Part shown: positions 8,714-57,231 of the stretch, one piece after another
Position numbering within the stretch: the first letter of the stretch is position 1
Layout of the letters: the number at the start of each line of letters is the position of its first letter
From: Patescibacteria group bacterium
GTDB lineage: Bacteria > Patescibacteriota > Microgenomatia > UBA8517
Direction: 5' to 3'
Assembly: GCA_036381415.1 (NCBI GenBank)
Contig: DASVCV010000003.1
Coordinates: 4,162-68,161 of the forward strand
Length of the DNA: 64,000 bases
The notes under the pieces: generated by a model
The model's input: the letters and a program-made list of their open reading frames with translations, nothing else
The model's database searches: none
What the model was told of the DNA's origin: nothing
Made by a program: the position numbers and the translations under genes

Positions 8714-9718
8714 TTAAGAATCTTTAATTAAACTCCAAGTTGCATATTCTTCAGGAGTAAGAGAGAGCTTTTTGGCTGATTTTCTACTGTAGGATCTTTC
8801 AAAATGCGGAACTAAAATATTTTTCTCGTAAGAAGTAATAATTACTGGGTGGATATAGTAGGTACGACAGACTTTCTTGGTATTTCCTAAATGATCTGCT
8901 ACTTCAGATACAACTTCTACGATATTTCTCTTAAGGTCAGTTGGTGTGGGGGCATTTCCTTTCTTGTACAAAGAATCTCCTGCTAAAACACTTCCTCCCC
9001 AGGTACGGAAATCTTTTGCAGAAAAGTCAGCTCCTGTGTGGACTTGCAAATAATTATTAACATCTTGGGAATCTACAACTTTTTTATTGTTGTCATCATC
9101 TACATATTGGAAGAGCTCATAACCTGGAAGTTCAATACATTCTTTTATTGTTTTGGCAATACGAGGGTAGGTAACATCAATGTCATGGAAGACACCACTT
9201 TTTCCTTTAAAGCTAAAAGTTACCGTGTTGCCTTCTACTTCTACATGTTTTTCCCGCATGGTTGTTAGACCATATGATTCATTCTCCTTGGCATATGTTT
9301 TATTGCCTACTCTAATGAAGGTGTGCTCTAACAACCAAACAACAGTTGCTACTACTCTATTCTGAGTTAGAGAACGTTCACTCATGTGAGCCTTAACTGC
9401 TTTTCGAAGAGTGGGAAGGCGCTCACCAAAGAGGACCATTTGGTCAAATTTACGTTCCTGGCTTTTTTTGACCCATTCTGGGTGATATATGTACTGCTTT
9501 CTGCCTGCAGCATCTATTCCTATTGCTTGAATATAATTCTTGGGATCTTTACTAATTTGAACATCTTTCCAGGCAGGAGGAATGACAAGACCTTTTATAC
9601 GGCTTGCTGCATTTTTAGAAACAGGTTTTCCACTTTCTGTTACAAACCTAAAGCCACTCTCCTTTTTAACTCTTTTCCAGGCAAGTTCTGTATCTTTACC
9701 ATAATGAATATGGGTCAT
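8714..9718 (-). CDS. DNA topoisomerase IB (poxvirus-type)
   Basis: 334 aa. Start MTHIHYGKDTELAWKRV..., core FRGKSG..., C-terminal CRTYYIHP...SYxK region with the active-site Tyr motif of bacterial TopIB. Confidence 0.8.
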   Translation of the reverse strand: MTHIHYGKDTELAWKRVKKESGFRFVTESGKPVSKNAASRIKGLVIPPAWKDVQISKDPKNYIQAIGIDAAGRKQYIYHPEWVKKSQERKFDQMVLFGERLPTLRKAVKAHMSERSLTQNRVVATVVWLLEHTFIRVGNKTYAKENESYGLTTMREKHVEVEGNTVTFSFKGKSGVFHDIDVTYPRIAKTIKECIELPGYELFQYVDDDNNKKVVDSQDVNNYLQVHTGADFSAKDFRTWGGSVLAGDSLYKKGNAPTPTDLKRNIVEVVSEVADHLGNTKKVCRTYYIHPVIITSYEKNILVPHFERSYSRKSAKKLSLTPEEYATWSLIKDS

Positions 9719-15276: not shown

Positions 15277-15780
15277 TTAATCAAGAGATTGCACTTCTGT
15301 AATGTAATAATCGTCGATACTGTCATTCTCCCCAAACATAAAGCTTCCAGTTAATAACTTTCCTGCAAAAACTTTAGGCATCCAGACTTCGTCATCAACC
15401 CACATCTCCTTAAACGGAATCTCATCCAATTTGAACCACTTGGGTCTCATTTCTTCTGTTTCTACAGGTTCGCCATGCCATTCGGTTGTAGTAAACACCC
15501 ACACTTTCATACCAAAATTATTGTGTGGAAAATGATACTTGAAAACAGCTACATTTTTAAGATTTGATGGAGTAATTCCGATTTCTTCTTGAGATTCTCT
15601 TATTGCAGTGCTTTCGATATCTTCATTGGGATTTGGTTTACCACCAACACCATTCCACTTACCAACGCCAAAGCCTCTTTTTTTCATTGCCAATAAGACT
15701 TCGTCGCCTTTCAGTAAAAGTAATACGGTTGCCTCTTTTAGAGGAATCGTTAATGTCTGCTCATATTCCCTAACTCCCAT
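15277..15780 (-). CDS. NUDIX hydrolase (paralog of 9794..10336)
   Basis: Nudix box GGKPNPNEDIESTAIRESQEEIGI. About half of its residues are identical to the other copy, including C-terminal LTGSFMFGENDSIDDYY. Confidence 0.8.
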   Translation of the reverse strand: MGVREYEQTLTIPLKEATVLLLLKGDEVLLAMKKRGFGVGKWNGVGGKPNPNEDIESTAIRESQEEIGITPSNLKNVAVFKYHFPHNNFGMKVWVFTTTEWHGEPVETEEMRPKWFKLDEIPFKEMWVDDEVWMPKVFAGKLLTGSFMFGENDSIDDYYITEVQSLD

Positions 15781-15949: not shown

Positions 15950-16714
15950 CTAAACAGTTGGCAAATGTAAATATTCTGTTCCAAATACTTGTTTAAAATC
16001 AAGATCGTTTAGTGCTAAGGGGAATAAATTAGGCTTGTTATAAAAATTGTGGAACGCTAGAGCTTTGCGCTTAAGAACCAGTTGAGTCTCGGTTAATTTA
16101 TAGCTATATTCAATTTCTTTGTTTAGCAAACCAAACTCCTTTGACCAATACTCTAGTTGAGGAATTAAATCTGGATTTAGTCTCTTTTTTGCGCCTGCTA
16201 ACCAATTAGACATCGCGTCTCTGTTAATAGTAATTTCTGATAGAAAGATTTGTTCTGGATATTTATTTTTGAGATGTCTTCCCACTAGATGAATTACTTT
16301 GTGGTCTTTGTTTCCATATCCCCCATTTTTGTCGTAGGACACAAGTGAAATTGGCAGTTTGATATTATTCTTTCCAAGCGCTTCAAGAAGTTCATTACCT
16401 ACATCTTCTATTTTTTGGTTCATAAGAGGAAAAACGTTTGTCCCCTGATACTTTGGCTCACTATATTTTAAGAAAATAACCGAACTTATTCCTAATATTG
16501 AACAAGCCTCGATTGTTTGTTGTTGACGTATAATTGTTTTTTCTTCTCCCTTAACTGAAGCTGCTGCCCCATATATGGCTACACATTTTCTTTTTTTTCT
16601 GGAAAGCTCATTTAATAAACCAGCAGATAAAAAAGATTCATCGTCGCAGTGAGCATGAAAGAATACGACAGGACGATTCTTTGGAAAAATTTCATCTATT
16701 TTTGTATTACTCAT
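15950..16714 (-). CDS. PIG-L/LmbE-family N-acetylglucosaminyl deacetylase
   Basis: VVFFHAHCDDESF (the HxDD zinc-binding motif of the LmbE/MshB/BshB family). The start overlaps the GT4 stop. Confidence 0.8.
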   Translation of the reverse strand: MSNTKIDEIFPKNRPVVFFHAHCDDESFLSAGLLNELSRKKRKCVAIYGAAASVKGEEKTIIRQQQTIEACSILGISSVIFLKYSEPKYQGTNVFPLMNQKIEDVGNELLEALGKNNIKLPISLVSYDKNGGYGNKDHKVIHLVGRHLKNKYPEQIFLSEITINRDAMSNWLAGAKKRLNPDLIPQLEYWSKEFGLLNKEIEYSYKLTETQLVLKRKALAFHNFYNKPNLFPLALNDLDFKQVFGTEYLHLPTV

Positions 16715-17891
16715 TTTTACTTAGATTTTCAAACAATTTAGTATCTAATCTAGATACTTCTTTTACAGATTTAAATGATTTAATAAAGTTAAGAGCTTGG
16801 GTAGAGAGGATATTCCTTTCTTTTAGAGATTCTACTGCTAGATTTGCGAATTTCTGGAAGTTTAATAGCTTAACTTTTTTAACCGCATTTGTAGCTGAAT
16901 AATTAAGTTTGGAAAAAGGAACACTCCATGTAATGACAGGTAATCCAAGGGCCAATGCTTCATTCACTACAGTTGGATAATTGTCATAATGAGAGGGATA
17001 CAGGAAAACACCACAGGAAGGCAGTATAGAATTTTTAGTTGAATCATCAGCCCACCCTTCATAATCTGCCTCAAAGTGTTTACTTTTATTTGAAACAAGC
17101 TTAGCTAAGGCTTGTTTACTAAAAGAATCGTCTGCCCTACCTAAAATAACTATTTTTACTTTTCTTCCAATCTTTATAGATATTCTTTTCAAAATATCCT
17201 CTAAATATTCCACACCTTTACCTTTTTCCATTCTAGCCATATAGGCAAAGTCATATTTTAAGTTGCTACTGATTTTGTAAGATTTATCCGCCTCAACTAC
17301 AGATGAAGCAGGCAAAACTAAAATTGGTAAATTTTTGAAATAAGTATTGAAGTAAAAAGCAACTGTTTTGTTGTTTGCTATTATTCTTACATTTTTAAAC
17401 ACTTCTTCAACTTCTTGATAGTGATTTAAAAGATAGTCTTTACGGTAAGTTGATATTCCTGAATTTGCATATTTTTCAACATCTTTTTTGAAATCTCCGC
17501 TAGGATTAGTAGGTGAAACCAAAAATGGCATAGCGTGCACTACTGTTGCGAAAGGTACTTTTCCCTTTAGGTTTTTGCCTAATTCTCTCATTAAGTCCCA
17601 TATTTCCATCTGCAGTATTACTGCGTCGGGCTTAAATTGGGTAATAAAGCTATTTATGTTTTCAACTACCTTACTCTGATCTTTAACTTCCCAACCATTA
17701 AATTCAACTGGATAATGAAAAAAGGTAATATTTTCGTAATTCTTCTTTGTGTTTTCATCATCAGGATTTTTGCCTAAACATACAATACTAATTTCATTTA
17801 ATTGAGAGAGGTATTTTAATTCTCTTGATAAACGAGCTAGGTGGCCTGCATTAGAAGATAAAGTTGAAAACGTAAGAAACATCAATCTCAT
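16707..17891 (-). CDS. glycosyltransferase family 4 (GT-B)
   Basis: 394 aa. C-terminal GT1/GT4 pattern (E...E motif region, DNYPTVVNEALALGLPVI). Confidence 0.75.
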   Translation of the reverse strand: MRLMFLTFSTLSSNAGHLARLSRELKYLSQLNEISIVCLGKNPDDENTKKNYENITFFHYPVEFNGWEVKDQSKVVENINSFITQFKPDAVILQMEIWDLMRELGKNLKGKVPFATVVHAMPFLVSPTNPSGDFKKDVEKYANSGISTYRKDYLLNHYQEVEEVFKNVRIIANNKTVAFYFNTYFKNLPILVLPASSVVEADKSYKISSNLKYDFAYMARMEKGKGVEYLEDILKRISIKIGRKVKIVILGRADDSFSKQALAKLVSNKSKHFEADYEGWADDSTKNSILPSCGVFLYPSHYDNYPTVVNEALALGLPVITWSVPFSKLNYSATNAVKKVKLLNFQKFANLAVESLKERNILSTQALNFIKSFKSVKEVSRLDTKLFENLSKNE

Positions 17892-18544
17892 AGCTGAGAC
17901 TTATTATTTTCATTAAAAATATAGATGGTTCCTACTTTTTCCTCCATTTTTCCTTCAGAATCCAAAATCATACCTGAATCTTCAGGTAGGGCTAGAACTT
18001 CAGATTTTGTCTTTTTAATTGTTTTATATACGTTTTTGTCGGCCTCTTCCTTGTAGTGACAAATTACAGACTTACCACCAAGCAGATTAAGTCCTTCGTA
18101 ATATGAATAGTTGCTATCATTTTCCTCTTCAACTGTTCTTATATCTTTGCCCAATATTATTGCTCCTGCACTTCCTCCATATACAATTCCACCATTTTTG
18201 ATAAATGTTTTGATTTTTTCATCCAATCCACTTTTTTTAATGTAATTTAGAAGTTTATAAGTGTTTCCACCACCCATATATATGGAATCATATAGCTTAA
18301 GATCTGGGATTTCGTCATCTTCCAAAAGCATTGTAAAATCTATATCTTTTTGGTTTGAGTGCTTTACAATAACTGTAGAAAACCAATCGTAGCTAGCTTC
18401 AAATCCAGTTTTGGTTCTGTTTAGTGCTATTGGAATATAGAGTATTTTTGAGTTGTTTTTAAGTAGAGAGAAATATTTTTTATCAATTCCAACACTAATA
18501 TCTATGTCTCCTCCACCTCCTAGGATAATTTTTCCCTTCTTCAT
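17888..18544 (-). CDS. peptidase S51 (dipeptidase E / cyanophycinase-like) family protein
   Basis: YMGGGNTYKLL...IVYGGSAGAIILG places the S51 catalytic Ser in GGSAG context. Overlaps neighbours on both sides. Confidence 0.6.
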   Translation of the reverse strand: MKKGKIILGGGGDIDISVGIDKKYFSLLKNNSKILYIPIALNRTKTGFEASYDWFSTVIVKHSNQKDIDFTMLLEDDEIPDLKLYDSIYMGGGNTYKLLNYIKKSGLDEKIKTFIKNGGIVYGGSAGAIILGKDIRTVEEENDSNYSYYEGLNLLGGKSVICHYKEEADKNVYKTIKKTKSEVLALPEDSGMILDSEGKMEEKVGTIYIFNENNKSQL

Positions 18545-19704
18545 GCTATTTTTTTAACTATCTCATCTATCTTATCTTTTGGCAACGAAAAACCAACTTG
18601 TTTTAAAAAGTCTTGAGTTGGCTGATTTATATCAACATAAATTTCGGTTGTTCCCTCTCTACCCAAGGTCTCTAAAAACAAACCATTATAATTCCTATCA
18701 TTTTCTAAAGATACAACCTTTAGCACCTCTTCTTTACTTACGGTCGGCTTATATCCCCATTTTTTCCAGAACTCGTAAGATGTATCTACTAATTCTGCTA
18801 CATTAGTATTTGTCCCTATGCTTCTTTGAACAAACCGTTTTGAAAGTTGTCTTAATCTATATCCGTGATCGTGAGAGGAAGGTTTTGTTCCTTCACCTGC
18901 TATTAAGACCATTGTTCTAATGGGGTCTATTATGGAAGCAATTTTATCTGCATCTGCTTGATCGTATAGTTCGTCAAATTCAGTAAAATAATGTTTAGTG
19001 GCGTTGATTGCCCAATTTAGCCTTTCTATTCCAAAACCTATATCAACAATTGATATTTTTTTGTCTTCTGTAACAGGATAATCATGAATATACACACACT
19101 CGCCTAATTCAATTCCGCCTGCATATATTGTAAATTGTGTCTTTGTGAACTTTCTACTACCCCATCTGTCGGGCACATTTTCTACTTGGAATCTTAAACT
19201 GCTTGCACTTACACCCAAACTTGTAATAAGTTTTATAAATTGATTAGACAGTTTTATAAAGTCATCGGGTTTTGCATCTACTGATTCTACTGAAAAATTG
19301 ATGAAAGATGATGAAGTTCCTTCTTTTATTTTATCCATAAACTGGCTCCTTATAACTGGCTGACTTACAACGAATGCTTCTCGTTTTAAATCACTACCTG
19401 TTCTTAGTACTGTTTCTATATGCTGAACTCCTGCTGAAGTAAAAAATGTCGTATCGCCTTTGGGCCTACAAACGGCATCAGGCTCTATTGACTTAACTCC
19501 ATCAAAATATTGGAATATATCTTCTGGTTTTTCCAATGGTTTTCTTTCGCTTGTTACTTGGGGTTTTTCATAATGAGTTGAGGGTGATAGCCTTAGAAAA
19601 TCTTGCCTTTCTTCATCTGCGACTAATCCTAAGTTTTGTGCGATAAAATCCTTGTTTAATTCAGTTTCTTGTGGGTATTTATTTTTAACCCTATCCATGT
19701 TCAT
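18541..19704 (-). CDS. stand-alone alanyl-tRNA-synthetase catalytic-core paralog (class II aaRS-like ligase)
   Basis: FFTSAGVQHIE matches AlaRS LLFTNAGMNQFK, VLRTGSDL matches CVRAGGKHNDL, and VDIGFGIERL matches VDTGMGLERI. It is only 387 aa, with no editing or C-Ala domains. Confidence 0.55.
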   Translation of the reverse strand: MNMDRVKNKYPQETELNKDFIAQNLGLVADEERQDFLRLSPSTHYEKPQVTSERKPLEKPEDIFQYFDGVKSIEPDAVCRPKGDTTFFTSAGVQHIETVLRTGSDLKREAFVVSQPVIRSQFMDKIKEGTSSSFINFSVESVDAKPDDFIKLSNQFIKLITSLGVSASSLRFQVENVPDRWGSRKFTKTQFTIYAGGIELGECVYIHDYPVTEDKKISIVDIGFGIERLNWAINATKHYFTEFDELYDQADADKIASIIDPIRTMVLIAGEGTKPSSHDHGYRLRQLSKRFVQRSIGTNTNVAELVDTSYEFWKKWGYKPTVSKEEVLKVVSLENDRNYNGLFLETLGREGTTEIYVDINQPTQDFLKQVGFSLPKDKIDEIVKKIA

Positions 19705-19707: not shown

Positions 19708-20931
19708 TTAATAAAGTTGAATTTTTTCTTGTAACAGCAATTTTGTAATTTCAGGAATAGATTTAACTTCCTTTTCAACTAGTTTTTTAACGCCATCTTT
19801 GTCTTTGAAATCTTCTGGAAGTGTTATAAATATTGCCCAAGGATCAAGTAAGTCTCTACCACTTTGGCTAATTAAGGCAACTTCGTTAGGAACTTTAAAT
19901 TCTTCATATATTTTTTTACTTATTTCATTAGCAGTCACATAATAAACTTTTCCAATATGATAAACAGGGTTTTTACCACATGCTCCTTCCATGCTCATTG
20001 GTCTAGTTGGTGAAATAACTCCATTTATTCTATTTCCTCTACCAACCAATCCTTCATCTCCACTTTCAATGGAAGAACCTATTGCCGTAAGGTAGAGCTC
20101 CATTGTGTTGAAATTGTCTCTGGTGTTGAAGTTAAGTTCTAAATCTTTTATTCCTAAATCTTTGGAAATTTTAAATATTACTTTCCTTGCCTTTTCCATA
20201 TTAGTTTTATATTCACCAGCAGATTTAACATGGTCTGCTATTTGAGGGATGCACATGGTAATTCCAAACTGGTCATGGTTTCTGTAACCCATTATTTTTA
20301 TGTCTGAACCAATCCAGGGATTTTCCTTTTTAAATTCTTCAGAATTTAAGGTGTTTTCAATTTTTAGTACTAGCTGCTCTAAGATTGTATGTGGTGCATA
20401 GCCTACCCCAAGAGATGTGTCATTTGAAACTAATTTCTTGGTTTCAGGTAAATCTTGTAGTGTTCTAGGTTCAAACCAATGCTTTCTTGGAGCATTTGTA
20501 GATTCAAATTCTTCTGTTTTTCCTGGACTACTTTGGCTACTTAAATTGTAATGAAACTCTAAATCCTTGTCTGGATTTATCATTGGAAATCTAGATTTAA
20601 GAAACTCTTTTGCCCAAGAAATTAACATTTCTTTAACAGGTATTTCTTCATCCCCAAACTTGGTTGATGCACGACCATTTAGTAAAACTCTAATTGGCTT
20701 AATCAGATAACCTTTACCAAACGTTACAAAAGAAGCTCCACCTAGAAGTCCCACTTTGTCAAAATTGTGATGTAAAACTGCTCCAAATTTTTCAAGGGTA
20801 TAGTTAGAGTATTTGACAGATAAAACCTCTGCTAATGCATCTGATAGGGTGTCTGGATGTCCAATCCCCTTTCTTTCAACAAACTCATAATCTGGGCTGT
20901 CTTTAGGCTTTTTAGTAATATAGATATTCAT
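19708..20931 (-). CDS. archaeal-type S-adenosylmethionine synthetase
   Basis: MNIYITKK...[18 protein letters not shown] is the N-terminal signature of archaeal-type MAT. 407 aa. Confidence 0.85.
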
Positions 20932-21104: not shown

Positions 21105-21422
21105 ATGTATATTGAATTTGTTAACAGTAAAATTCGAAAGGTGTGTGAAAAGCGTTCAATTGCCATTAAAAAATTAGGTTTGAGAAATGCAGACTTGGTG
21201 GTTCAAAGAATAATGGAAATGGAAGCGGCAGCAAGTTTACAAGATTTAAGGATTTTACCAGGCCCAAGATGTCATCCTTTGAGCGGAGATAGAAAGGGAC
21301 AATATGCTGTTGACCTTGTTCATCCCAAAAGATTAGTTTTTTTGCCAGTAACTAAACTAAACGAAATTGCAGAAAGTTTGATTACAGAAATAATGGTTAT
21401 CGAAATAGTAGATTATCATTAA
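21105..21422 (+). CDS. higB: HigB-like (plasmid-maintenance killer, RelE superfamily) toxin
   Basis: 105 aa. The pattern ...NADLVVQRI...LQDLRILPGPRCHPLSGDRKGQYAVDL is typical of the HigB killer family. It lies immediately upstream of HigA. Confidence 0.7.
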   Translation: MYIEFVNSKIRKVCEKRSIAIKKLGLRNADLVVQRIMEMEAAASLQDLRILPGPRCHPLSGDRKGQYAVDLVHPKRLVFLPVTKLNEIAESLITEIMVIEIVDYH

Positions 21423-21424
21423 CT

Positions 21425-22510
21425 ATGATTAAGCAAAAAATAAATAATTACACACCAGATTTTATTGTTCACCCAGGTGTCACTTTGTCTGAAACGCTGG
21501 GTGCTATTGGTATGAGTCAAACCGAATTGTCCAAAAGAATTTCCCGACCAGAAACGGCAATTAGTGAAATTATAAACGGTTCCAAATCACTTACTCCCGA
21601 GACAGCAATCCAATTAGAAAGAGCTCTGGGCATCCCAGCTTCATTTTGGAATAATCTTGAGAAGAATTATCAGGAACTTAAAGCTAAATCTGAGTCTAAA
21701 AAAGCTTTACTTAAACAATCCGACCTAGCTGCAAATTATCCTTATGCTGAAATGGCAAAAAATGGCTGGGTGCAACAGACCAACAGTCTAGAAGAAAAAA
21801 TTGAAAATTTGTTGTCCTTCTTTGCAGTGGATAAATTATCTGTAATACCTGAAGTCATGCCTACTGCTTTTAGACAGCATAATGGGCGTTCTATATCCCA
21901 CTACTCTATACAAGCATGGCTGAGGAAGGGACTTATAGACAGTCAAATGGTAGATACAAAACCGTTTAATAAACAAAAATTAAACAATTTACTTGACGAG
22001 TTTAGAACGCTTTCAGTTGAAACCCCCAATATTATAGTGGACAAATTAACAAGATCCCTTGCAGAGTGCGGGATTGCTCTTGTATTCACAAAGGATTTAC
22101 CAAACACTTATGTCTGTGGAGCTTCTCGTTGGATAACACCTAACAAGGCAATCCTACAACTTTCATTAAGAGGACTTTATGCAGATATAATGTGGTTTAC
22201 TTTTTATCATGAATTAGGACACTTGTTGTTGCATAGCAAAAAGAAATATTTTGTAGATTTAAATCACACGACAAATAACACTGAGGAGGAAAAAGAAGCA
22301 GACAATTTTGCTTCGGAACACATTATCCCTGAACAAAAATTGTCTGAATTTATTTCAAAGAATGAAATTAGCGTCACATCAATTACAAATTTTGCTAACG
22401 AATTAGGTATCCATCCAGGAATTATTGTAGGTAGGCTCCAACACAAAAAGAAAATAGAATACAAGGATTTTAATCACCTAAGAGCTAAATATTATTTTGT
22501 AAAATCATAA
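21425..22510 (+). CDS. higA: HigA-type HTH antitoxin fused to an ImmA/IrrE-family metallopeptidase domain
   Basis: N-terminal HigA HTH (GVTLSETLGAIGMSQTELSKRISRPETAISEIINGSKSLTPETAIQLERALGIPASFW). C-terminal HEXXH (FYHELGHLLLH) with a downstream acidic residue, as in ImmA/IrrE. Confidence 0.7.
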   Translation: MIKQKINNYTPDFIVHPGVTLSETLGAIGMSQTELSKRISRPETAISEIINGSKSLTPETAIQLERALGIPASFWNNLEKNYQELKAKSESKKALLKQSDLAANYPYAEMAKNGWVQQTNSLEEKIENLLSFFAVDKLSVIPEVMPTAFRQHNGRSISHYSIQAWLRKGLIDSQMVDTKPFNKQKLNNLLDEFRTLSVETPNIIVDKLTRSLAECGIALVFTKDLPNTYVCGASRWITPNKAILQLSLRGLYADIMWFTFYHELGHLLLHSKKKYFVDLNHTTNNTEEEKEADNFASEHIIPEQKLSEFISKNEISVTSITNFANELGIHPGIIVGRLQHKKKIEYKDFNHLRAKYYFVKS

Positions 22511-22535
22511 AATTATTCTGAAGATGTAATGAATT

Positions 22536-23519
22536 ATGATGACTGGAAAAGAAAAACTCTATTTTCTTCTTGATACTATTGATGATGCAAGGTCTGTATC
22601 ACCTTCTGGCCAACCCTTAATTATTGATCCTGCGAATGACCTAAACGACAGACTTAGAGGTGTTGAATTAGAACAACTATTCACAAAGCTAGAAAAAGAC
22701 GAACAAGTCTTGAAAATTTTGCAAATCCCGAGCGGAATAAAAACTATTAGCATAGTTGAAGATGCTGATCCTTACGATCAGCTTTATGAAAATGACGATG
22801 GGTGTTGGCACATAGAACTTTTGCCTGCTTTTGATGACTATTTTTTAAAAATTCAAAATGAGCTTGAATATCAAGAGTTTACAGGCAAAAAACCGAGTTT
22901 TGAAACAGACATCCAAAGATTGTATGAAAAAATTCAGAAAGTAGATGAGCAAATCAGCATAAGAAGAGAGGCATGGGCTAAAGCTCAATCTACGATAAGC
23001 GACAATTCTTATTATTCTGAAGCAACAAGGACTGGACACCTTGCAAAACTTGAGCAACAAGCACAAACGGATATTGGTAATTTCATTAAACAAAAGGAAA
23101 CATACTTAGTAGAACTTAATCTTAGAAAAACAGATGTTCCAAAAAGCTCCCAAGCAAAACCTTTCAACGAAGAAGATAAATCAAACTCGGACAAGGTGTA
23201 TGAAATCACGTATATCTCAAGAGATATACTGCTTAATAATACTTTTCATTTAGCTAAACCAGATTTTGATAGCGAAAATGAGGTAGTTTTTTCATTTCTG
23301 TTTAATAATCCAAATCAGACTTTTAGTCGAACTGAAATAGAGGTGGAGATCCGAAGGAAAATAGCTAAGTCGCTTCATAAAATTGTAGAGAATCTGGGAT
23401 TTGTAGGTGATCTGAAAAAAGTTTTTTTTAACGTAAGCAAGGATTCTATCTGTTTCAAGAATCCTGTAACTAGACCTGATTTAGACAAGCTAGGGGTTGT
23501 CCACATTAAACTCCCCTAG
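22536..23519 (+). CDS. hypothetical protein
   Basis: 327-aa acidic protein with no recognisable motifs. Confidence 0.4.
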   Translation: MMTGKEKLYFLLDTIDDARSVSPSGQPLIIDPANDLNDRLRGVELEQLFTKLEKDEQVLKILQIPSGIKTISIVEDADPYDQLYENDDGCWHIELLPAFDDYFLKIQNELEYQEFTGKKPSFETDIQRLYEKIQKVDEQISIRREAWAKAQSTISDNSYYSEATRTGHLAKLEQQAQTDIGNFIKQKETYLVELNLRKTDVPKSSQAKPFNEEDKSNSDKVYEITYISRDILLNNTFHLAKPDFDSENEVVFSFLFNNPNQTFSRTEIEVEIRRKIAKSLHKIVENLGFVGDLKKVFFNVSKDSICFKNPVTRPDLDKLGVVHIKLP

Positions 23520-23847
23520 CGGTTGATAGGCATACGCTCCTTTTTGTACCTAAGTTTCCCTACCACGACGACAAACTACCAAATCGTCCTTATTCTCCTT
23601 TTATGGAAACAAAAAAAGCGGAACAAACCCAAGAGGAAACAGACAGGCACAAAGATCGTTTGGCCAAATTTTTTAATCTTTTGATTGAAATTGACCAGAA
23701 GAACAAGAGGAAAGAGGTGAATAAAGATGTATAAGAAATCAAATTTTCAAAAGAAACTACAGGAATTACTAGCAAAAGAATACAAGCGAATGCTAAGCGA
23801 AAACATAAAAAAAGGTTTCAAGTTGGCTATAGAAAGGAAAAATAAAA

Positions 23848-24135
23848 ATGAGAATAAGTGAAATTCAGATTATTCCGATCAAACCGCAAAACGGCCTTGT
23901 TGCCTTTGTGAGCTTTGTTTTAGACAGTAACCTTTATCTTAGTTCAATTGGTGTAATCACAAGACCACAAGGTGGTTACAGACTTACCTACCCTACTAAA
24001 AGAGTGGGTGTAAAAGACTTAAATATTTTCTATCCGATAAATAAAACTTTTGCAGAAGAAATAGAAAAGGAGGTGTCAGCAAAGCTTGAAGAAGTAATGA
24101 ATAATTATGATAGATACAATAAAACTAGTGCTTGA
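23848..24135 (+). CDS. SpoVG-family protein
   Basis: MRISEIQIIPIKPQNGLVAFVSFVLDSNLYLSSIGVITRPQGGYRLTYPTKRV... matches the SpoVG fold pattern (MxITDVRI..., G.Y.IS.P). Confidence 0.55.
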   Translation: MRISEIQIIPIKPQNGLVAFVSFVLDSNLYLSSIGVITRPQGGYRLTYPTKRVGVKDLNIFYPINKTFAEEIEKEVSAKLEEVMNNYDRYNKTSA

Positions 24136-25243
24136 TAGCAGTATGTATACAATTTTAGGTATGAATTTTTTTGAAAAAGGTAAAACAAATATGAGTCGTG
24201 GTTATTCAACATTTGTTCAAAATCCTACACAGAGTGAGTTGAAACGAGGTATATATAGACCGAGATTAACTGAGACTCATAGATATAATTGTTCTGGCCG
24301 TTCAGGTAAGACTTTAACTATTGAACTTTCTCTTCCCAAACTTATGTATGGAAATAATTTTGATGAATTAAAAGATGAAGATTTTCCTGTCGTATTTGAA
24401 AAGCTAAGACAGGTGTTAAAAGATGTGTCTGTTCGTGTTTATGAAAAGAGTTTAGAAAATGCACCTGTTTCTGCGGCTCACTATTCAAAAAACATTCCTT
24501 TAACTGATGGTTTAACTCCTCACTTTCTTATAAGTAAAATTAAAGAAGCGAATATTAAGCTTTCTCTTGATATTAGCGAGACTAGTTACAGTAATGATGG
24601 CCACATCTACAAATGGCACAGCAATTCCTATGAAGTTACTTTTTATGACAAAATTCATGATTTAGGAAAAGCTAAGGTTAGTGACAAAAGAGCAATAGAA
24701 AGAGACAATGCAATTCAGCTTGGTCTATTTGATAACTTTAAAAATAGAAAAATGTTTGAGGTTTTGCGAATGGAGATACGTTTAAAAAGGCCAAAGATGC
24801 GTAAATTATTTAGCGAATTGGGTATAGAAAAAGAATTCACATTTAAGAAACTGTTTAGCTCTCAAATCTCACAAAAAGTATTGCTACATTACCTTAATGA
24901 GATTGAACAGCAACGACTCCCCCTTCTTGACTATTCAACTTCAGACAAAGCTTTGTTGGCTGATTTAGTTATCAATAATCCTTCACTAGGAATAAAAAGA
25001 ACCCTGCAATTATATGGGTTTAAACAAGCGTTAAATAACGTGAGTATTCGTGAATTAAGGACGATGTTTGGGAAATGCAGTTCAAATAGCTGGTATAGAT
25101 TGATGTCTGATGCTAATAAAGTTAAGCCTCTTCCCCATCCAAGTCCTTTTAAAGTTATTAGAGATAATTTAGAAAGATTTGAACCGCTAAACATTGTTGA
25201 CTTTCAAGATGACAAGATGTTAAATAATGATAAATATAACTGA
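24107..25243 (+). CDS. hypothetical protein, possibly a replication-initiation (Rep_trans/phage CRI-like) factor
   Basis: 378 aa. N-terminal MIDTIKLVLDS resembles the IDxL start of Rep_trans proteins. Embedded among recombinase and excisionase genes. Confidence 0.3.
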   Translation: MIDTIKLVLDSSMYTILGMNFFEKGKTNMSRGYSTFVQNPTQSELKRGIYRPRLTETHRYNCSGRSGKTLTIELSLPKLMYGNNFDELKDEDFPVVFEKLRQVLKDVSVRVYEKSLENAPVSAAHYSKNIPLTDGLTPHFLISKIKEANIKLSLDISETSYSNDGHIYKWHSNSYEVTFYDKIHDLGKAKVSDKRAIERDNAIQLGLFDNFKNRKMFEVLRMEIRLKRPKMRKLFSELGIEKEFTFKKLFSSQISQKVLLHYLNEIEQQRLPLLDYSTSDKALLADLVINNPSLGIKRTLQLYGFKQALNNVSIRELRTMFGKCSSNSWYRLMSDANKVKPLPHPSPFKVIRDNLERFEPLNIVDFQDDKMLNNDKYN

Positions 25244-25418
25244 TATGGCACAGGAGTATTACTACTCTATCGAGGAGGTAGCAAAAACGTTAAAAGTTGC
25301 CTACCTTACTGTTTATCGATGGGTACAAGCAAAAAAATTAGCAGCCTTCAAAGCAGGCAAGCAGTACAGGATTAGGAAAGAAGACTTAGATCTGTTCTTA
25401 AAAGGTTATGAAGAATAA
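25227..25418 (+). CDS. excisionase/MerR-like HTH DNA-binding protein
   Basis: 63 aa. YYSIEEVAKTLKVAYLTVYRWVQAKKLAAFKAGKQYRIRKEDLDLFL has the shape of excisionase-family HTH_17 proteins. Confidence 0.55.
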   Translation: MINITDMAQEYYYSIEEVAKTLKVAYLTVYRWVQAKKLAAFKAGKQYRIRKEDLDLFLKGYEE

Positions 25419-26223
25419 AGGTATGAATAACTCATTTAAAATTCCAATTGAACAAGAGGATTATGACTATTGTTCTCAATTAGTAAGAAAAGAAATCAGT
25501 AAAATAATTCAAACAGCTATTGAAAAAGGTGATAACAAAATATTTATTCATACAAATCTACGCAGAGGGCTACCATTAGAAAATATAAACAAAGTTGCAG
25601 GTCCTTTTGTGGAAGCATGGGCATTGGAAAAGTTTGAAAAAATAGCTGAAAATCCTTTAAACGAATATAACTTAGTTAATGTTGAACCTGGTGTGCGTTT
25701 GGCACCATACGATATTATTCTTCAGTTTAAGAAGAAAAAGAGTAATGCTTCAGAAGTAGCGACTGCAAATGTGGATGTGAAAGCTACCTCAGACGATATT
25801 CCAACCTCTGGCCGAAGTCCAAACATAACTTCCTTTGGCAGGATACGAACAGAATATATTAACGATCCAGATTACATTTTTATTATTTTGTCATTGAAAC
25901 ATAAAGTCTATGGTGAAAGAAATGACAAAACTGGGATGACAAATGGAATTATGGAAGTTACAACCTACTCAGTTTACGATTTAAAATATGTAGATGAAAA
26001 AGATATTAGTTATAATCCAGCTCTCGGAACAGGTCAATTGCAAATACGAGACATTCATTATGTGTCTGAGACAAAAAGAACTACTTGGGAATTTCTCCAA
26101 ATATTGGATAGGAAGTTTATACGCTCAAAAGGCCAATCTGCTTGGGACAAGTTGGCAAAAATACATGGTTGGTTAATCGGAACAGAACCAAAAGTAGAAG
26201 TTACCGCAGAAGAAGTTCTATGA
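25408..26223 (+). CDS. putative type II restriction endonuclease
   Basis: Stop overlaps the MTase start (ATGA). Possible PD-(D/E)xK elements (PYDIIL ... NVDVKAT). Confidence 0.35.
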   Translation: MKNKGMNNSFKIPIEQEDYDYCSQLVRKEISKIIQTAIEKGDNKIFIHTNLRRGLPLENINKVAGPFVEAWALEKFEKIAENPLNEYNLVNVEPGVRLAPYDIILQFKKKKSNASEVATANVDVKATSDDIPTSGRSPNITSFGRIRTEYINDPDYIFIILSLKHKVYGERNDKTGMTNGIMEVTTYSVYDLKYVDEKDISYNPALGTGQLQIRDIHYVSETKRTTWEFLQILDRKFIRSKGQSAWDKLAKIHGWLIGTEPKVEVTAEEVL

Positions 26224-27014
26224 AGACTAATTATTTCATTGTTGGTGATGCCATTGAAAAAATGCAAAGACTCCCGAACGAGTCTATTGATTTAGTGGCA
26301 ACTGATCCACCTTATAATCTAGGGAAGAATTACGGCAATAACATCGACTACAAGGAGTGGCATGATTACCAACTGTTTACAGAAAGATGGCTGTCTGAGG
26401 CTGTGAGAGTTTTGAAATCATCAGGTAGTATTTATGTGTTTATGGGGGTAAGGTTTATTTCTAAGCTATTTACTTTAATGGAAGAAAAAGGCTTATTATT
26501 CAATGGTTGGATCACCTGGCACTACACTCAAGGTATGGGTAGAACACTTGGATTTTCCCCACGACATGAAGATCTTTTGTATTTTACCAAATCATCTAAT
26601 TTTACTTTTAATTTAGATGATATAAGAGTTCCACAAAAATACTTCCGAGAAAGAAATAACATGAAGGGTGCAAACCCTGGTGACGTTTGGCTGTTTTCTC
26701 ATGTTCATTACTCAAATCCAGAAAGGCAACCTCACCCTACACAAAAACCCTTGGCTGTAATGGAAAGGATAATTAAAGCAAGTTCAAATAAAGGTGATCT
26801 CGTTTTAGATCCGTTTGTAGGAAGTGGAAGTACATGCGTTGCTGCAAATGCACTAGATCGAAAATGGATAGGAATTGATACTAATCCAGATTATATTAAA
26901 ATGTCTAAAAAAAGAATATCGGAAATTTATTCTCCTGACTCCTTTGACCCTCGTCAAAGCAGAACTCCCCGAGATCTTAAAAAAAATGTTAATCAGAAAG
27001 GTTTACTTTTTTGA
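26220..27014 (+). CDS. DNA methyltransferase, beta-class amino-MTase (N4-C or N6-A)
   Basis: Motif IV VATDPPYNL precedes motif I LDPFVGSGST. The ORF track started it at an upstream alternative codon (26142). Confidence 0.85.
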   Translation: MKTNYFIVGDAIEKMQRLPNESIDLVATDPPYNLGKNYGNNIDYKEWHDYQLFTERWLSEAVRVLKSSGSIYVFMGVRFISKLFTLMEEKGLLFNGWITWHYTQGMGRTLGFSPRHEDLLYFTKSSNFTFNLDDIRVPQKYFRERNNMKGANPGDVWLFSHVHYSNPERQPHPTQKPLAVMERIIKASSNKGDLVLDPFVGSGSTCVAANALDRKWIGIDTNPDYIKMSKKRISEIYSPDSFDPRQSRTPRDLKKNVNQKGLLF

Positions 27015-27016
27015 CA

Positions 27017-28480
27017 ATGAAAGCAATAATCCTAGCTAGAGTATCTACTGAAGAACAAAAAGAGGCTGGAAATTCTTTACCTGCTCAACAAGCTAGGCTA
27101 AGAGCCTACATAGATAGAAAGTCCGATTTTCAATTAGTAAAAGAGTTTATATTTGATGAGTCAGCATATCAAGATAAAGAAAGGAAAAAATTTCAGCAGG
27201 TTGTTGATTATATTAGCAACCAAAAAGAAACAATTGCAGTTTGTTGCGATAAAGTAGATAGATTAAGCAGAGATTTTTTACTTGGTTTGCCTGCCTTAGA
27301 AAAGCTTAGAAGAATTGGTAAGATTGAATTGCACTTTCCTTCTGATAACTTAGTTATTCATAAAGATTCTCCTGCAACTGATCTATTTCACTACAATATT
27401 GCTTTGAGTTTGGCTCAATATTTTTCAAACGCTATTAGCGATAACGTCAAAAGAGCAATTGAACAAAAGCTCCGCAATGGTGAGTGGCCAGGTAAAGCTC
27501 CTTATGGATATAAAAATATAAGTATAAGCGAAGATAAAAAGGATATTATAGTGGATGAATTTACTTCAAGAGTTGTAAAGAAAATGTATGAGTGGTATTC
27601 AACGGGTGCCTATTCCCTACTCATTATTAGAAAGAAACTTAAAGAAGATCATAACATAGATTTTTCAAAGGGTTATATTGATGCAATTCTTAAAAATCCT
27701 TTCTATTGTGGTTTAATGCGTTTCAAAGGCGACCTTTACCCTCATAAATATGAACCTTTAATTTCTAAAGAGCTGTTTGATAAGGTGCAACAAATAAAGG
27801 CTGGGTATAACAAGAAGCATCATAAGTTTGCAGGGCTTCCCTACGCATATAGGGGCTTAATTCGCTGTGCTGTGTGCGGTTGTATGATAACCCCTGAGAA
27901 GCATAAAGGTCATATTTACTATCACTGCACACAATACAAAGGTAAGCATAAGATGGAATGGCTTAGAGAAGAAGATATAACCGAACAGTTTGCACAGTTA
28001 TTTAAAAAGCTACAGATACCACAAGAAATATTGGAAGATATCACAAACTCGCTTAAAAGCGTTCATAAGGGAAAAATTGAATACAGAGAGGAAGAGTTTA
28101 AAGCATTAAATGCGGAAAAGAATAAATACGCGAAAAGAATTGAACACTCATACGAGGATAGACTTGATGGGCGTATTACTGTAAATGAATATGACAAATA
28201 TCACACTGAGTTTAGAAATAAGATAAACGAAATTGATAGTAAATTAGCAAACTTACAGAAAGCAGAAGATGACTATTATTTGAGCGCAAAATACCTTCTG
28301 GAATTGGCAAACAGAGCTTCTGATTTATTCAAAAGTTCTGAAATTGAGGAAAGACGCCAACTTTTGAAGCTTACACTTCAGAACCTTACCTTGGATGGTA
28401 AAAAAGTCCGATTCCAAGCTCAAAAACCCTTTGATACAATCTTAAATTTCGCAGATAGTCCTTCTTGGCTCCCCCGGTAG
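27017..28480 (+). CDS. large serine recombinase (resolvase/invertase N-domain plus recombinase and zinc-ribbon domains)
   Basis: KAIILARVSTEEQ (catalytic Ser), C-terminal CAVCGC...CTQYKG zinc ribbon and a coiled-coil tail. Its stop codon lies inside the tRNA-Asn 3' exon on the opposite strand. Confidence 0.85.
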   Translation: MKAIILARVSTEEQKEAGNSLPAQQARLRAYIDRKSDFQLVKEFIFDESAYQDKERKKFQQVVDYISNQKETIAVCCDKVDRLSRDFLLGLPALEKLRRIGKIELHFPSDNLVIHKDSPATDLFHYNIALSLAQYFSNAISDNVKRAIEQKLRNGEWPGKAPYGYKNISISEDKKDIIVDEFTSRVVKKMYEWYSTGAYSLLIIRKKLKEDHNIDFSKGYIDAILKNPFYCGLMRFKGDLYPHKYEPLISKELFDKVQQIKAGYNKKHHKFAGLPYAYRGLIRCAVCGCMITPEKHKGHIYYHCTQYKGKHKMEWLREEDITEQFAQLFKKLQIPQEILEDITNSLKSVHKGKIEYREEEFKALNAEKNKYAKRIEHSYEDRLDGRITVNEYDKYHTEFRNKINEIDSKLANLQKAEDDYYLSAKYLLELANRASDLFKSSEIEERRQLLKLTLQNLTLDGKKVRFQAQKPFDTILNFADSPSWLPR

Positions 28481-33713: not shown

Positions 33714-33715
33714 GC

Positions 33716-33798
33716 GGAAGGGACAGGATTCGAACCTGCGAGGGCTTGCGCCCACACGCTCTCCAAGCGTGCGCCTTGAACCGCTCGGCCACCCTTCC
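33716..33798 (-). tRNA. tRNA-Ser(GGA)
   Basis: Reverse complement GGAAGGG-UG-GCC-GAGCGGUUCAA-GGC..., anticodon loop UUGGAGA, long variable arm, T-loop GGUUCGAAUCC, acceptor CCCUUCC-G. Confidence 0.75.
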
Positions 33799-34239
33799 CT
33801 ATTTTTTCTTTTTCTTTTTTTCTGCCTCTAATTTTTTAAGAAGGTCACGAGCTCCCCTTAACATGGCTTGGTCTCTTTTGGTGGTAAGCTTTTTAATAGC
33901 TTTTCCATATTCAAACCAATCATATGCAGCAAAACCTAGTACTTCTTTTCCTTCTTTATTAATCATTAAGTAATAAAGATACCTTTGAGGAACGGTGCGC
34001 CCTCCAAGCATTGCAGCTCCTCCACCACGGCCTACTTCTTCAAGGACTTTTGCTCTCATTCCACCTTGCTCACCCATGGCTCTAATTACTGCTCTAACTG
34101 AAGACTCTCCCCTTCTTGCAGTGGTTTTGGGAAGTTCCCAATCAGAATCTTCTTTTTGTTTTACAAGAAACCAAGTTGTTTTACCATTTGCCTTGCGGTA
34201 AACAACTGCTGCTCCTACTAATAATATTTTTTCTTTCAT
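33799..34239 (-). CDS. hypothetical protein, weakly NUDIX-like, Lys-rich C-tail
   Basis: 146 aa. WELPKTTARRGESSVRAVIRAMGEQGG resembles a degenerate Nudix box. The C-terminus is KKKKKK. Confidence 0.35.
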   Translation of the reverse strand: MKEKILLVGAAVVYRKANGKTTWFLVKQKEDSDWELPKTTARRGESSVRAVIRAMGEQGGMRAKVLEEVGRGGGAAMLGGRTVPQRYLYYLMINKEGKEVLGFAAYDWFEYGKAIKKLTTKRDQAMLRGARDLLKKLEAEKKKKKK

Positions 34240-34252
34240 TTTTTCAATTATG

Positions 34253-34324
34253 TGTCCCTGGTCAGAATTGAACTGACATCAAAGGTTCCGGAAACCTTTA
34301 CTTTATCCATTAAGCTACAGGGAC
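34253..34324 (-). tRNA. tRNA-Arg(CCG)
   Basis: Reverse complement GUCCCUG-UA-GCUU-AAUGGAUA-AAGU-A-AAGGU-UUCCGGA-ACCUU-UGAU-GUCAG-UUCAAUU-CUGAC-CAGGGAC-A. Confidence 0.75.
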
Positions 34325-34352
34325 TTATTATACTCTACTTTGTAGCCTAATG

Positions 34353-34435
34353 CGGAGAGGACAGGACTCGAACCTGCAAGGGCTTACGCCCGCCGGTTTT
34401 CGAAACCGGTACCTTACCATTCGGTACACCTCTCC
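34353..34435 (-). tRNA. tRNA-Ser(CGA)
   Basis: Reverse complement GGAGAGG..., anticodon stem CCGGU/ACCGG with loop UUCGAAA, long variable arm GCGGGCGUAAGCCCUUGC, T-loop GGUUCGAGUCC, acceptor CCUCUCC-G. Confidence 0.75.
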
Positions 34436-34449
34436 TTAATTTTAATTTG

Positions 34450-34521
34450 TGCACCCGCCCAGAGTCGAACTGGGATCAAAAGCTCCGCAAGCTTGTACTC
34501 TATCCATTGAGCTACGGGTGC
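34450..34521 (-). tRNA. tRNA with anticodon GCG (Arg, unusual G34)
   Basis: Reverse complement GCACCCG-UA-GCUC-AAUGGAUA-GAGU-A-CAAGC-UUGCGGA-GCUUU-UGAU-CCCAG-UUCGACU-CUGGG-CGGGUGC-A. There is a C27-U43 mismatch in the anticodon stem. Confidence 0.6.
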
Positions 34522-34524
34522 AAG

Positions 34525-35076
34525 TTATTTATTACCCGGCATCCTTTTTGAAACCCAGATGGTTGCTTTATCTATATATGAAGGTGGAATTTCTTCATGT
34601 ACTAAGTACTCTGAAATTTCCTTTTTAATTTCATCCTTCACACTAGAATTAACAACCACTTCTAGACGGCCAGGCAGAGTTACTGTTTCTACAACCAAAA
34701 GTTCACTGTCAAACCTTTTAGTAAACCAAAATCTTCCCATTACATCCCAAGATGTGGTCTTACCTGCCACATTTATTCCTTTATTAGTAATTTTGTACTG
34801 GATGTTTTCAGGCTCTACAGTACTCATTACATAGAAAAGAAATACAAGAGAAATTATTAGAATTACAGGTAAAAAGCCTTCTATTAAAAAAAGAACAAAT
34901 CCGGCAACAGCTGCCATTGCTATCACTGTTACAAAAAACTCTTTGTTTCTTCTTTTAAAAGGCCTTGCTGGCGCGGTCCAAGTTACCAAGTCTTTTTCAG
35001 GCTCAGATTTCATCACTTCTGGCTTTGTATTTTGGTTTTCTGGTAATGTGCTACTTTCTTTTTCAATGGCAGGCAT
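34525..35076 (-). CDS. membrane protein with bacterial PH (bPH_2/YdbS-like) domain
   Basis: Two TM helices followed by a PH-like domain (KITNKGINVAGKTTSWDVMGRFWFTKRFDSELLVV). Confidence 0.45.
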   Translation of the reverse strand: MPAIEKESSTLPENQNTKPEVMKSEPEKDLVTWTAPARPFKRRNKEFFVTVIAMAAVAGFVLFLIEGFLPVILIISLVFLFYVMSTVEPENIQYKITNKGINVAGKTTSWDVMGRFWFTKRFDSELLVVETVTLPGRLEVVVNSSVKDEIKKEISEYLVHEEIPPSYIDKATIWVSKRMPGNK

Positions 35077-35144
35077 ATTAACCCATATTATACGCTAGTT
35101 TAGGGTACGTTCCAAGCTTACAATCTGATATAATGTGCTTGTTT

Positions 35145-35230
35145 GGAGGGTATCCCGAACGGCTCAGGGAATGGTTTGCTAAACCATAACGTTTAATTGC
35201 GTTAGGTGGGTTCGACTCCCGCACCCTCCG
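35145..35230 (+). tRNA. tRNA-Ser(GCU)
   Basis: GGAGGGU-AU-CCC-GAACGGCUCA-GGG-AA-UGGUU-UGCUAAA-ACCAU with long variable arm AACGUUUAAUUGCGUUAG, then GUGGG-UUCGACU-CCCGC-ACCCUCC-G. This parse is a 5-bp stem with a UGCUAAA loop (the working notes used AUGGU/UUGCUAA/ACCAU); under either parse the anticodon is GCU. Confidence 0.75.
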
Positions 35231-35262
35231 CACTAAGCCAAATTTGCTATAATCTACTATAG

Positions 35263-35353: not shown

Positions 35354-35355
35354 AC

Positions 35356-35967: not shown

Positions 35968-35970
35968 CTC

Positions 35971-36447: not shown

Positions 36448-36452
36448 TTCAT

Positions 36453-36815: not shown

Positions 36816-36839
36816 CTAGATTTAAGAAATATTAATTAA

Positions 36840-57215: not shown

Positions 57216-57231
57216 GGAGTAATTTTAAAAT

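Follow-up and report, generated by a model that had tools for sequence, protein, structure and literature searches.

What does a protein resembling a fragment of alanyl-tRNA synthetase (AlaRS) do when its gene is wedged between those of a methionine adenosyltransferase (MAT) and an S51-family peptidase? The question is raised by an open reading frame (ORF) on contig DASVCV010000003.1 of a Patescibacteria group bacterium (assembly GCA_036381415.1), of which a stretch of 64,000 nucleotides, referred to here as the window, was analysed. The gene (18541-19704, minus strand, ATG start) encodes 387 amino acids, and we call its product AlaL, for AlaRS-like protein. The original prediction, made from the nucleotide sequence, described it as an orphan AlaRS catalytic domain that was either one half of a split AlaRS or a neofunctionalised paralogue of the enzyme, the latter being favoured. 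We tentatively prefer the view that AlaL is an ATP-dependent amino acid:glucosaminide ligase with a role outside translation, built on a class II AlaRS scaffold and following the logic of MshC and BshC.

AlaL is a remote but clear homologue of AlaRS. As a single sequence it stays below the curated cut-offs, scoring 25.5 bits with Pfam PF01411 (tRNA-synt_2c; gathering score 30.3), 39.5 bits (E 2e-10) with the archaeal AlaRS model TIGR03683 (cut-off 744.7) and 32.6 bits with TIGR00344 (cut-off 457), and it reaches A. fulgidus AlaRS in phmmer at E 0.005. A profile of 40 AlaL family sequences matches the E. coli AlaRS 1-441 fragment (3hxu) at E 8.8e-13, hhalign relates the family to E. coli AlaRS with 96% probability, and the AlphaFold2 model of AlaL (pLDDT 90.1, pTM 0.88) has the AlaRS of A. 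fulgidus, P. horikoshii, E. coli and human as its top Foldseek matches (E 3e-15 to 1e-10, TMq 0.55-0.66), the next match, the GlyRS alpha subunit, following at a far lower TMq of about 0.33. The relationship initially read from the motifs FFTSAGVQ (residues 87-94, nucleotides 19423-19446) and GFGIERL (residues 223-229, nucleotides 19018-19038) is hence upheld by profile comparison, and the ORF of 387 codons and both motifs are as described.

The domain layout differs somewhat from the one first proposed. The alignment with E. coli AlaRS begins at AlaL residue 59, which pairs with E. coli residue 8, and the family-specific N-terminal extension (residues 1-58, nucleotides 19531-19704, minus strand) is therefore about 58 and not about 40 residues long; it is modelled with a pLDDT of 77-96 across residues 11-40 and is absent in some relatives, for instance a form of 347 residues (L072). 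It is followed on the same strand by a reduced class II catalytic core of the AlaRS type (residues 59-240, nucleotides 18985-19530), about 60 residues shorter than that of E. coli AlaRS, and by a reduced helical domain (residues 241-387, nucleotides 18544-18984) that is equivalent to the tRNA-recognition domain of AlaRS. In the model the region from about residue 241 to 387 is all-helical, and residues 219-336 pair with E. coli residues 234-364, the PSN..GYxLRR helix included, so that AlaL is more than the catalytic domain alone that it was taken for. An editing domain and a C-Ala domain are indeed both missing from AlaL, as had been stated, and the protein stops at residue 387 inside the recognition-domain equivalent.

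Nor is AlaL an orphan. A word-indexed search retrieved 67 close clusters, nearly all of 380-395 residues, labelled 'hypothetical protein' and mostly from metagenome-assembled genomes (MAGs) of Patescibacteria, and a hidden Markov model search of 1.84 billion representatives found 244 relatives at E<=1e-30, nearly all of 330-430 residues, and 428 at E<=1e-10. AlaL is a member of a metagenome-only family with its own invariant residues, and a search for a cultured carrier that started from a divergent homologue in a proteobacterial gene context likewise gave metagenomic proteins only. A pattern-based scan found AlaL in at least 13 of 185,579 GTDB species representatives, and not in about one copy per genome as is the case for alaS; a normal alaS is expected in the organisms that carry AlaL. 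No description of the family was found in curated models, defence-system models or the literature, and none in the literature of archaeal-type MAT in the Candidate Phyla Radiation (CPR) or of inositol or mycothiol in Patescibacteria. As far as curated libraries and the searchable literature show, the family, its gene cassette and the tie to an archaeal-type MAT are undescribed; paralogues of aminoacyl-tRNA synthetases (aaRS) acting in metabolism are already known as a kind. One JGI annotation calls a family member alanyl-tRNA synthetase, a label that could inflate aaRS gene counts in reduced genomes.

Conservation within the family was read from an alignment of 194 members, down to about 22% identity, and E. 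coli AlaRS residues are numbered as in the literature, the numbers having been checked against the translated gene. Q115, P116, R119, F134 and R228 are invariant, position 221 is D or E throughout (Asp in 180 of 194 members, or 93%, and Glu in the remainder), E227 is Glu in 98% and W181 is Trp in 95%. The segment SQPVIR119 represents motif 2, with R119 corresponding to E. coli R69, F134 is the adenine-stacking Phe, D221-I-G223-F-G-I-E-R228 corresponds to E. coli D235..G237..R242 with R228 as the motif 3 Arg, and W181 and V204 are the counterparts of W170 and V214. In AlaRS the motif 2 Arg contacts the alpha-phosphate, the stacking Phe and the motif 3 Arg sandwich the adenine, V214 contacts the methyl group of Ala and D235 binds the alpha-amino group (PMC12143591), and the class II adenylate-site residues among these, namely the motif 2 Arg, the stacking Phe, the motif 3 Arg and the alpha-amino-binding Asp, are all present in AlaL. 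E199 and E202 correspond to E. coli E209 and N212, the latter position being acidic (E/D) in 87% of the members, and E199 and E/D202 probably form the acidic pair at the Mg-ATP site of class II enzymes. In the subfamily of the window's AlaL the pocket is made up of the small-pocket residues W181, V/I204 and G/C/T223. Given these residues and the invariant contacts, strong purifying selection acts on the nucleotide site of the family, and the side-chain pocket appears to be of a size for Ala, Gly or Ser.

The Asn and Asp pair by which AlaRS reads G3:U70 (E. coli N303 and D400) is on the other hand not conserved in the family. The Asn of the PSN motif is Ser277 in AlaL and N in 52% of the members, being H, S, P or Q in the others, and no conserved Asp matching D400 was found in the segment equivalent to LYDTYG, the last 50 residues of AlaL having been aligned by eye and by secondary structure. 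The comparison with AlaRS thus bears out the Ala-site residues (D221 as D/E, W181, V204) and fails to bear out the G3:U70 readers (Ser277, no conserved Asp). The loss is nonetheless compatible with tRNA binding, since the mini-AlaRS of Tupanvirus charges tRNA-Ala even though both readers are missing from it (PMC10036535). The motif 2 loop of AlaL is furthermore divergent and has no Lys at the position of E. coli K73, the net charge of the helical domain compared with that of E. coli AlaRS is uninformative, and the pocket residues show no clear pattern of co-variation with the type of an adjacent aaRS, a Cys at the G237 position of a GlyRS-containing cassette recurring in cassettes that have no GlyRS.

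The genes surrounding AlaL in the window form a compact cassette on the minus strand. An archaeal-type MAT, i.e. an S-adenosylmethionine (SAM) synthetase (19708-20931, PF01941, E 6e-109), is separated from the AlaL start by a gap of 3 nucleotides, and AlaL is followed by an S51-family serine peptidase/hydrolase of the PepE/cyanophycinase family (17888-18544, PF03575, E 1.3e-22), a GT4-family glycosyltransferase in the position of MshA (16707-17891, PF00534 and PF13692) and a PIG-L/LmbE-family N-deacetylase in the position of MshB (15950-16714, PF02585), with overlaps of 4 nucleotides between AlaL and S51, 4 between S51 and GT4 and 8 between GT4 and PIG-L. The proposed operonic embedding of AlaL between MAT and the S51 peptidase is thereby confirmed. 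The MAT matches M. jannaschii MAT (7p82) at E 5e-78 with its conserved motifs aligned and intact, and is by these marks a regular archaeal-type enzyme. In the S51 protein Ser125 of GGSAG and His163 are at least 90% conserved among 36 orthologues, as would be expected of a serine hydrolase and not of a Cys amidotransferase; a role as glutamine amidotransferase, raised by a weak GATase_3 match, was ruled out, the nucleophile being the conserved Ser in GGSAG and not Cys. The PIG-L orthologues conserve HAHxDDE and HxxH, and their profile has M. tuberculosis MshB/Rv1170 as its best solved match (E 4.5e-12), ahead of chitobiose deacetylases (4.5e-8) and BshB (2.4e-5). No solved relative of the GT4 emerged from its orthologue profile at E<=0.001, and its likeness to MshA is therefore positional only. 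Besides MAT no SAM-using enzyme is recognisable in the window's cassette and no dedicated aaRS is found inside it, no tRNA gene accompanies AlaL consistently across loci, a promoter and terminator scan gave nothing above chance, and the core cassette genes have no match in a library of anti-phage defence systems. A MutT-like Nudix hydrolase (15277-15780, minus strand, PF00293) lies beyond a gap of 169 nucleotides after the cassette, but its membership is doubtful, Nudix genes being found near AlaL in two other lineages only (L011/L040 and L059) and there on the opposite strand. This Nudix gene matches a candidate defence model, PADLOC PDC-S07, at E 6e-11.

The linkage of these genes recurs widely. 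Loci were pooled from GTDB species representatives (13), from metagenomes scanned with the closer AlaL family alignment (45) and, for the others, by exact look-up; their ORFs were searched with the window's proteins and the loci dereplicated to 52 distinct ones, the denominators that follow (41, 37, 23 and 33) being the loci per partner among these 52, with 41 having enough sequence for the position of MAT. An archaeal-type MAT lies directly upstream of AlaL in 32 of 41 loci and within 6 kb in 36, S51 directly downstream in 31 of 37 with one further case of fusion, and GT4 and PIG-L orthologues come after S51 in 13 of 23. A myo-inositol-1-phosphate synthase (PF01658, E 3.7e-33) is found directly upstream of MAT or nearby in 14 of 33. 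Some cassettes include a phosphatase of the PHP or His_Phos type, the PHP enzyme lying between S51 and GT4 in L053, L062, L072 and L074, and some have a second, divergent glycosyltransferase in that interval. SAM-dependent methyltransferases take the place of the sugar enzymes in L003, L005 and L015, and a fused GlyRS lies inside the operon of L011/L040. AlaL also occurs as natural fusions, namely to S51 (P0204), to a glycosyltransferase (P0155, P0141) and to a methyltransferase (P0164).

The cassette was found in MAGs labelled Chloroflexota, Omnitrophota, Gammaproteobacteria and Tenericutes besides Patescibacteria, as well as on contigs with a proteobacterial gene context, in one case beside an autotransporter on a 690-kb contig, and since it turns up in these several backgrounds it moves as a unit, MAT included. 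MAT as a chance housekeeping neighbour is likewise unlikely, since it accompanies the cassette into unrelated genomic backgrounds. The preference for a neofunctionalised paralogue over a synthetase subunit is in agreement with all of this, i.e. with a distinct family, a cassette conserved in distant lineages, the fusions and the sparse distribution, and the comparison with MshC that accompanied it has become stronger, as genes of the MshA, MshB and Ino1 types belong to the cassette.

Several loci depart from this arrangement. Distant AlaL members are found beside radical SAM enzymes, MAT, S51 and a bona fide SerRS (L023, L024, L066, L068), and another distant cluster (L025) holds radical SAM enzymes, a DegT aminotransferase and methyltransferases. 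In L021 (11497-16977) a distant AlaL accompanies ProRS and a divergent ProRS paralogue, an AsnA/AsnRS-like protein, a methyltransferase and an S66 (MccF-family) peptidase, and in L026 (11247-15555) another one accompanies an ABC importer, S66 and S51; by analogy these two gene sets recall pathways that make aminoacyl-nucleotide antibiotics or confer immunity to them. A WWE3 MAG (L073, 4346-9447) has the order MAT-S51-ProRS with no AlaL, adjoining a diversity-generating retroelement (reverse transcriptase and bAvd), and MAT-S51 may be an older core that takes different class II synthetases as partners. The cassette MAT is split at the same place into two overlapping ORFs in L005 (6761-7980) and also in L006, L043 and L044, loci that represent two contigs, one from each of two JGI samples; because both samples have the same break, a real frameshift, pseudogenic or programmed, is suggested and not an assembly error. 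The AlaL gene is likewise split in L054 and L057.

How might such a cassette work? Mycothiol synthesis reaches glucosaminyl-inositol (GlcN-Ins) by way of Ino1, MshA, MshA2 and MshB, and then employs the aaRS-derived ligase MshC. Judging by gene context, AlaL would form the amide bond in a small biosynthetic cassette that spreads horizontally and runs along similar lines. GT4 would attach N-acetylglucosamine (GlcNAc) to an alcohol, which in many relatives could be myo-inositol phosphate supplied by the adjacent inositol-1-phosphate synthase, the phosphatase of some cassettes would strip the phosphate, and PIG-L would remove the acetyl group to free the sugar amine. AlaL would then use ATP to activate a small amino acid as aminoacyl-adenylate in its intact class II site and hand the aminoacyl group to the sugar amine instead of a tRNA. 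SAM or a SAM-derived group would be consumed in the pathway, to judge by the co-translation of MAT with AlaL, and S51 probably trims, recycles or detoxifies the aminoacyl product. We favour a glucosaminide ligase because the sugar steps are those of mycothiol synthesis, because AlaL is the only candidate ligase of the cassette and has an intact adenylate site, and because AlaL is in some cases fused to a glycosyltransferase.

A number of observations nevertheless sit uneasily with a glucosaminide acceptor. About a third to half of the cassettes have no GT4 and PIG-L and carry divergent glycosyltransferases and/or SAM methyltransferases instead, so that, if the reaction of AlaL is uniform, the acceptor is not always a glucosaminide. 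MAT and S51, which form the invariant core even where GT4 and PIG-L are missing, have no part in the mycothiol scheme, and no inositol-phosphate synthase was found in the 64-kb window. An acceptor derived from adenosine would also be consistent with the conserved adenine and phosphate contacts, the helical tRNA-recognition-like domain has been retained, and the canonical SerRS, GlyRS or ProRS within or beside some cassettes hints at aminoacyl-tRNA. Since MAT and S51 are invariant and the window's cassette has no other SAM-using enzyme, SAM or a product of it is probably a substrate of AlaL or S51.

Much of this would be accommodated if AlaL had no amino acid activation of its own and transferred Ala, Gly or Ser from aminoacyl-tRNA, the main rival explanation, which we consider somewhat unlikely. 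The precedent is AcmF of ascamycin biosynthesis, the sole characterised truncated AlaRS paralogue, which binds adenosine sulfamate in the old adenylate pocket, takes Ala from Ala-tRNA and is partnered by an AlaRS (AcmD) and a de-alanylating hydrolase (AcmE) (PMC12945691). The acceptor in the old adenylate pocket of AlaL would correspondingly be an amine or contain adenosine (SAM, a SAM derivative or a glucosaminide), the product would be an aminoacyl-nucleoside or -glycoside, possibly an inhibitor of aaRS or ribosomes, and S51 would be a de-aminoacylating immunity hydrolase like AcmE or MccF. AcmF has the same architecture as AlaL, consisting of the aminoacylation and tRNA-recognition domains only (PMC12945691), and where AlaL has E/D at the E. 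coli N212 position AcmF has Q; nearly every AlaL cassette would moreover have an adenosyl compound at hand from MAT, and MAT, S51 and the occasional neighbouring SerRS, GlyRS and ProRS, together with the S66 and S51 peptidases of L021 and L026 and the ProRS that follows MAT-S51 in L073, map loosely onto the AcmF scheme. However, AcmF is reported to have lost most of the ATP- and Ala-activating residues, its Asn being changed to Gln and its Asp to Glu (PMC12945691), whereas these residues are conserved in AlaL and the Asp is kept in the great majority of its members. Furthermore, the window's cassette has neither a dedicated aaRS nor an associated tRNA gene, SAM offers no nucleophile where the AMP phosphate sits, and the adjacency of aaRS genes may in small CPR genomes be partly due to chance, our own estimate of the enrichment in direct adjacency being about threefold.

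A joint reading, which we regard as rather unlikely, makes SAM a stoichiometric building block, AlaL being either retuned for SAM or a SAM-derived amino acid or aminoacylating the adenosine of SAM. The product might then be a hitherto unknown aminoacyl-glucosaminyl-inositol of the mycothiol kind or an aminoacyl-nucleoside, serving ultra-small Patescibacteria and reduced proteobacterial symbionts as redox cofactor or anti-host weapon, and of this part we are equally doubtful.

More doubtful still is the narrower proposal that AlaL itself activates SAM, or a small amino acid derived from it such as azetidine-2-carboxylate (Aze) or 1-aminocyclopropane-1-carboxylate (ACC). SAM is activated by the ClbH adenylation domain in colibactin synthesis, and ProRS, which takes AlaL's place beside MAT-S51 in L073, is the other synthetase that activates Aze. 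The proposal would account for MAT as the constant upstream gene, the adjacency of MAT and AlaL being the most conserved feature of the cassette and persisting where, as in the window, no other SAM-using enzyme is recognisable; in addition, human AlaRS binds an Aze-adenylate analogue in a structure found among the Foldseek matches (PDB 5v59), and a sulfonium or a secondary amine might find its partner in the second acidic pocket residue, E/D202. The core cassette, however, contains no recognisable SAM cyclase or ACC synthase, the pocket residues are Ala-sized in appearance, and the argument is one of gene order and analogy.

AlaL might alternatively be a genuine small AlaRS that charges tRNA-Ala or another tRNA, either as a spare synthetase or as the source of aminoacyl-tRNA for a pathway. 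It does contain both the catalytic and the tRNA-recognition-like domains that make up the minimal aminoacylating unit of AlaRS, the Tupanvirus enzyme (TuAlaRS, 461 residues) both charges tRNA-Ala and rescues yeast without the Asn/Asp readers of G3:U70 (PMC10036535), and the alpha subunit of N. equitans, acting by itself, can charge minihelices that have no G:U (PMC11392972). We nonetheless find this quite improbable, as AlaL scores far under every AlaRS threshold, is missing some 60 residues of the catalytic core, differs in the motif 2 loop with its absent Lys, and has a variable Asn reader and no conserved Asp alignable with D400; its strict linkage and fusion to metabolic enzymes, its very sparse distribution and the lack of a recognisable aminoacyl-tRNA-using transferase in the cassette point the same way. 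That AlaL is the alpha subunit of a split housekeeping AlaRS, which its size and its missing editing and C-Ala domains recall from Nanoarchaeota (PMC11392972), is very unlikely indeed, since every Patescibacteria genome needs an AlaRS and AlaL was found by the pattern-based scan, which gives a lower bound, in only 13 of 185,579 species representatives and occurs also on proteobacterial-type and other contigs, since it is fused to S51, a glycosyltransferase or a methyltransferase in relatives, since neither the window nor the surroundings of about 70 related loci yielded a beta-type ORF with editing and C-Ala domains, and since its divergence from AlaRS would be extreme for an essential enzyme.

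Elsewhere in the window, a mobile or defence island (21105-28480) lies directly upstream of the cassette. It comprises an HTH_3 and IrrE/M78 peptidase protein after a small toxin-like ORF, a SpoVG-like gene, an HTH_17 excisionase-type protein, an N6/N4 DNA methylase beside a 271-residue protein that is a possible restriction enzyme, and a large serine recombinase (27011-28480). Since DnaG and RpoD lie much nearer to MAT in a related genome (L001), this region has the look of an insertion. Farther away are a tight cluster of four tRNA-Ser (GGA, CGA, GCT, TGA), two tRNA-Arg (CCG, GCG) and a tmRNA with the tag AKSNDSASVNQNFVFA (33714-36816), conjugation or type IV secretion-like genes typical of Patescibacteria (55455-60833), including a PrgI-like protein, a TraG/VirB4 P-loop ATPase (57232-59073) and an M23 peptidase protein (59070-60833), and a bacterial type IB topoisomerase (8714-9718; Topoisom_I and Top1B_N_bact), an enzyme that is uncommon in bacteria. 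The large ORFs at 37433-39361 (642 residues), 45254-48781 (1175), 48834-50525 (563) and 50679-52538 (619) have no Pfam match at E<=1e-5.

To our knowledge metabolism has recruited few aaRS paralogues, and each of them (MshC, AsnA, EpmA, HisZ, AcmF, SbzA) came with new chemistry. The AlaL family adds an AlaRS-derived lineage of several hundred sequence clusters that has so far been seen only in uncultured and mostly host-dependent bacteria, organisms credited with next to no biosynthetic ability. From the constant association of the family with an archaeal-type MAT, S51 and mycothiol-type sugar enzymes a new small molecule is predicted, which could be a low-molecular-weight cofactor or an antibiotic of the CPR, and the cassette, being a compact unit of five to seven genes, is suited to heterologous expression. 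Should SAM indeed serve as a building block, AlaL would represent a second, independent recruitment of an aaRS, this time of class II, to the role of MshC, again with new chemistry.

Among known systems, AlaL shares with canonical, mini and split AlaRS the fold, class II motifs 2 and 3, the Ala-binding Asp and the PSN..GYxLRR helix, but at about 15-18% identity it falls below all curated cut-offs, has a shortened core and a family-specific N-terminal extension, and is an accessory, operon-bound protein, sometimes fused to metabolic enzymes, in which the G3:U70 readers are not conserved. The pseudodisaccharide steps of aminoglycoside synthesis, in which GlcNAc is transferred to a cyclitol (BtrM/NeoM, GT4) and then de-N-acetylated (BtrD/NeoL, LmbE-type), use the same pair of GT4 and LmbE-type deacetylase as the AlaL cassette, and the radical SAM enzymes, DegT aminotransferase and methyltransferases of the distant cluster L025 add to the resemblance, whereas the core cassette lacks both a cyclitol aminotransferase and a cyclitol dehydrogenase, and we know of no aaRS-like acylation in aminoglycoside routes. 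AcmF, judged by its published description (PMC12945691), is like AlaL a truncated AlaRS paralogue of two domains in which the N212-equivalent Asn has been replaced, and it acts on an adenosine-related scaffold in the company of a hydrolase that removes the aminoacyl group, as AlaL is accompanied by S51; it differs in the reported loss of most activation residues, which AlaL has largely kept, and in taxon (Streptomyces) and gene cluster. MshC, the Cys:GlcN-Ins ligase of mycothiol synthesis, is built on the class I CysRS scaffold and AlaL on that of class II AlaRS, and the two are not homologous; AlaL shows no homology to CysRS or to the BshC family, AlaRS models alone matching it. Its amino acid is probably not Cys, and the AlaL cassette has no MshD-type acetyltransferase, has MAT and S51 as obligatory members and in some cases dispenses with GT4 and PIG-L. 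In both systems as well as in bacillithiol synthesis, however, an ATP-dependent ligase (a putative one in the case of AlaL) that is derived from or resembles an aaRS follows a GT4 enzyme (MshA/BshA) and a PIG-L/LmbE deacetylase (MshB/BshB), an Ino1-type synthase and a phosphatase join in many AlaL relatives as in mycothiol synthesis, and the cassette deacetylase is closest to MshB. The genomic coupling expected of a ligase of the MshC/BshC type, to GT4 and PIG-L with or without an inositol-phosphate synthase, is thus present for AlaL.

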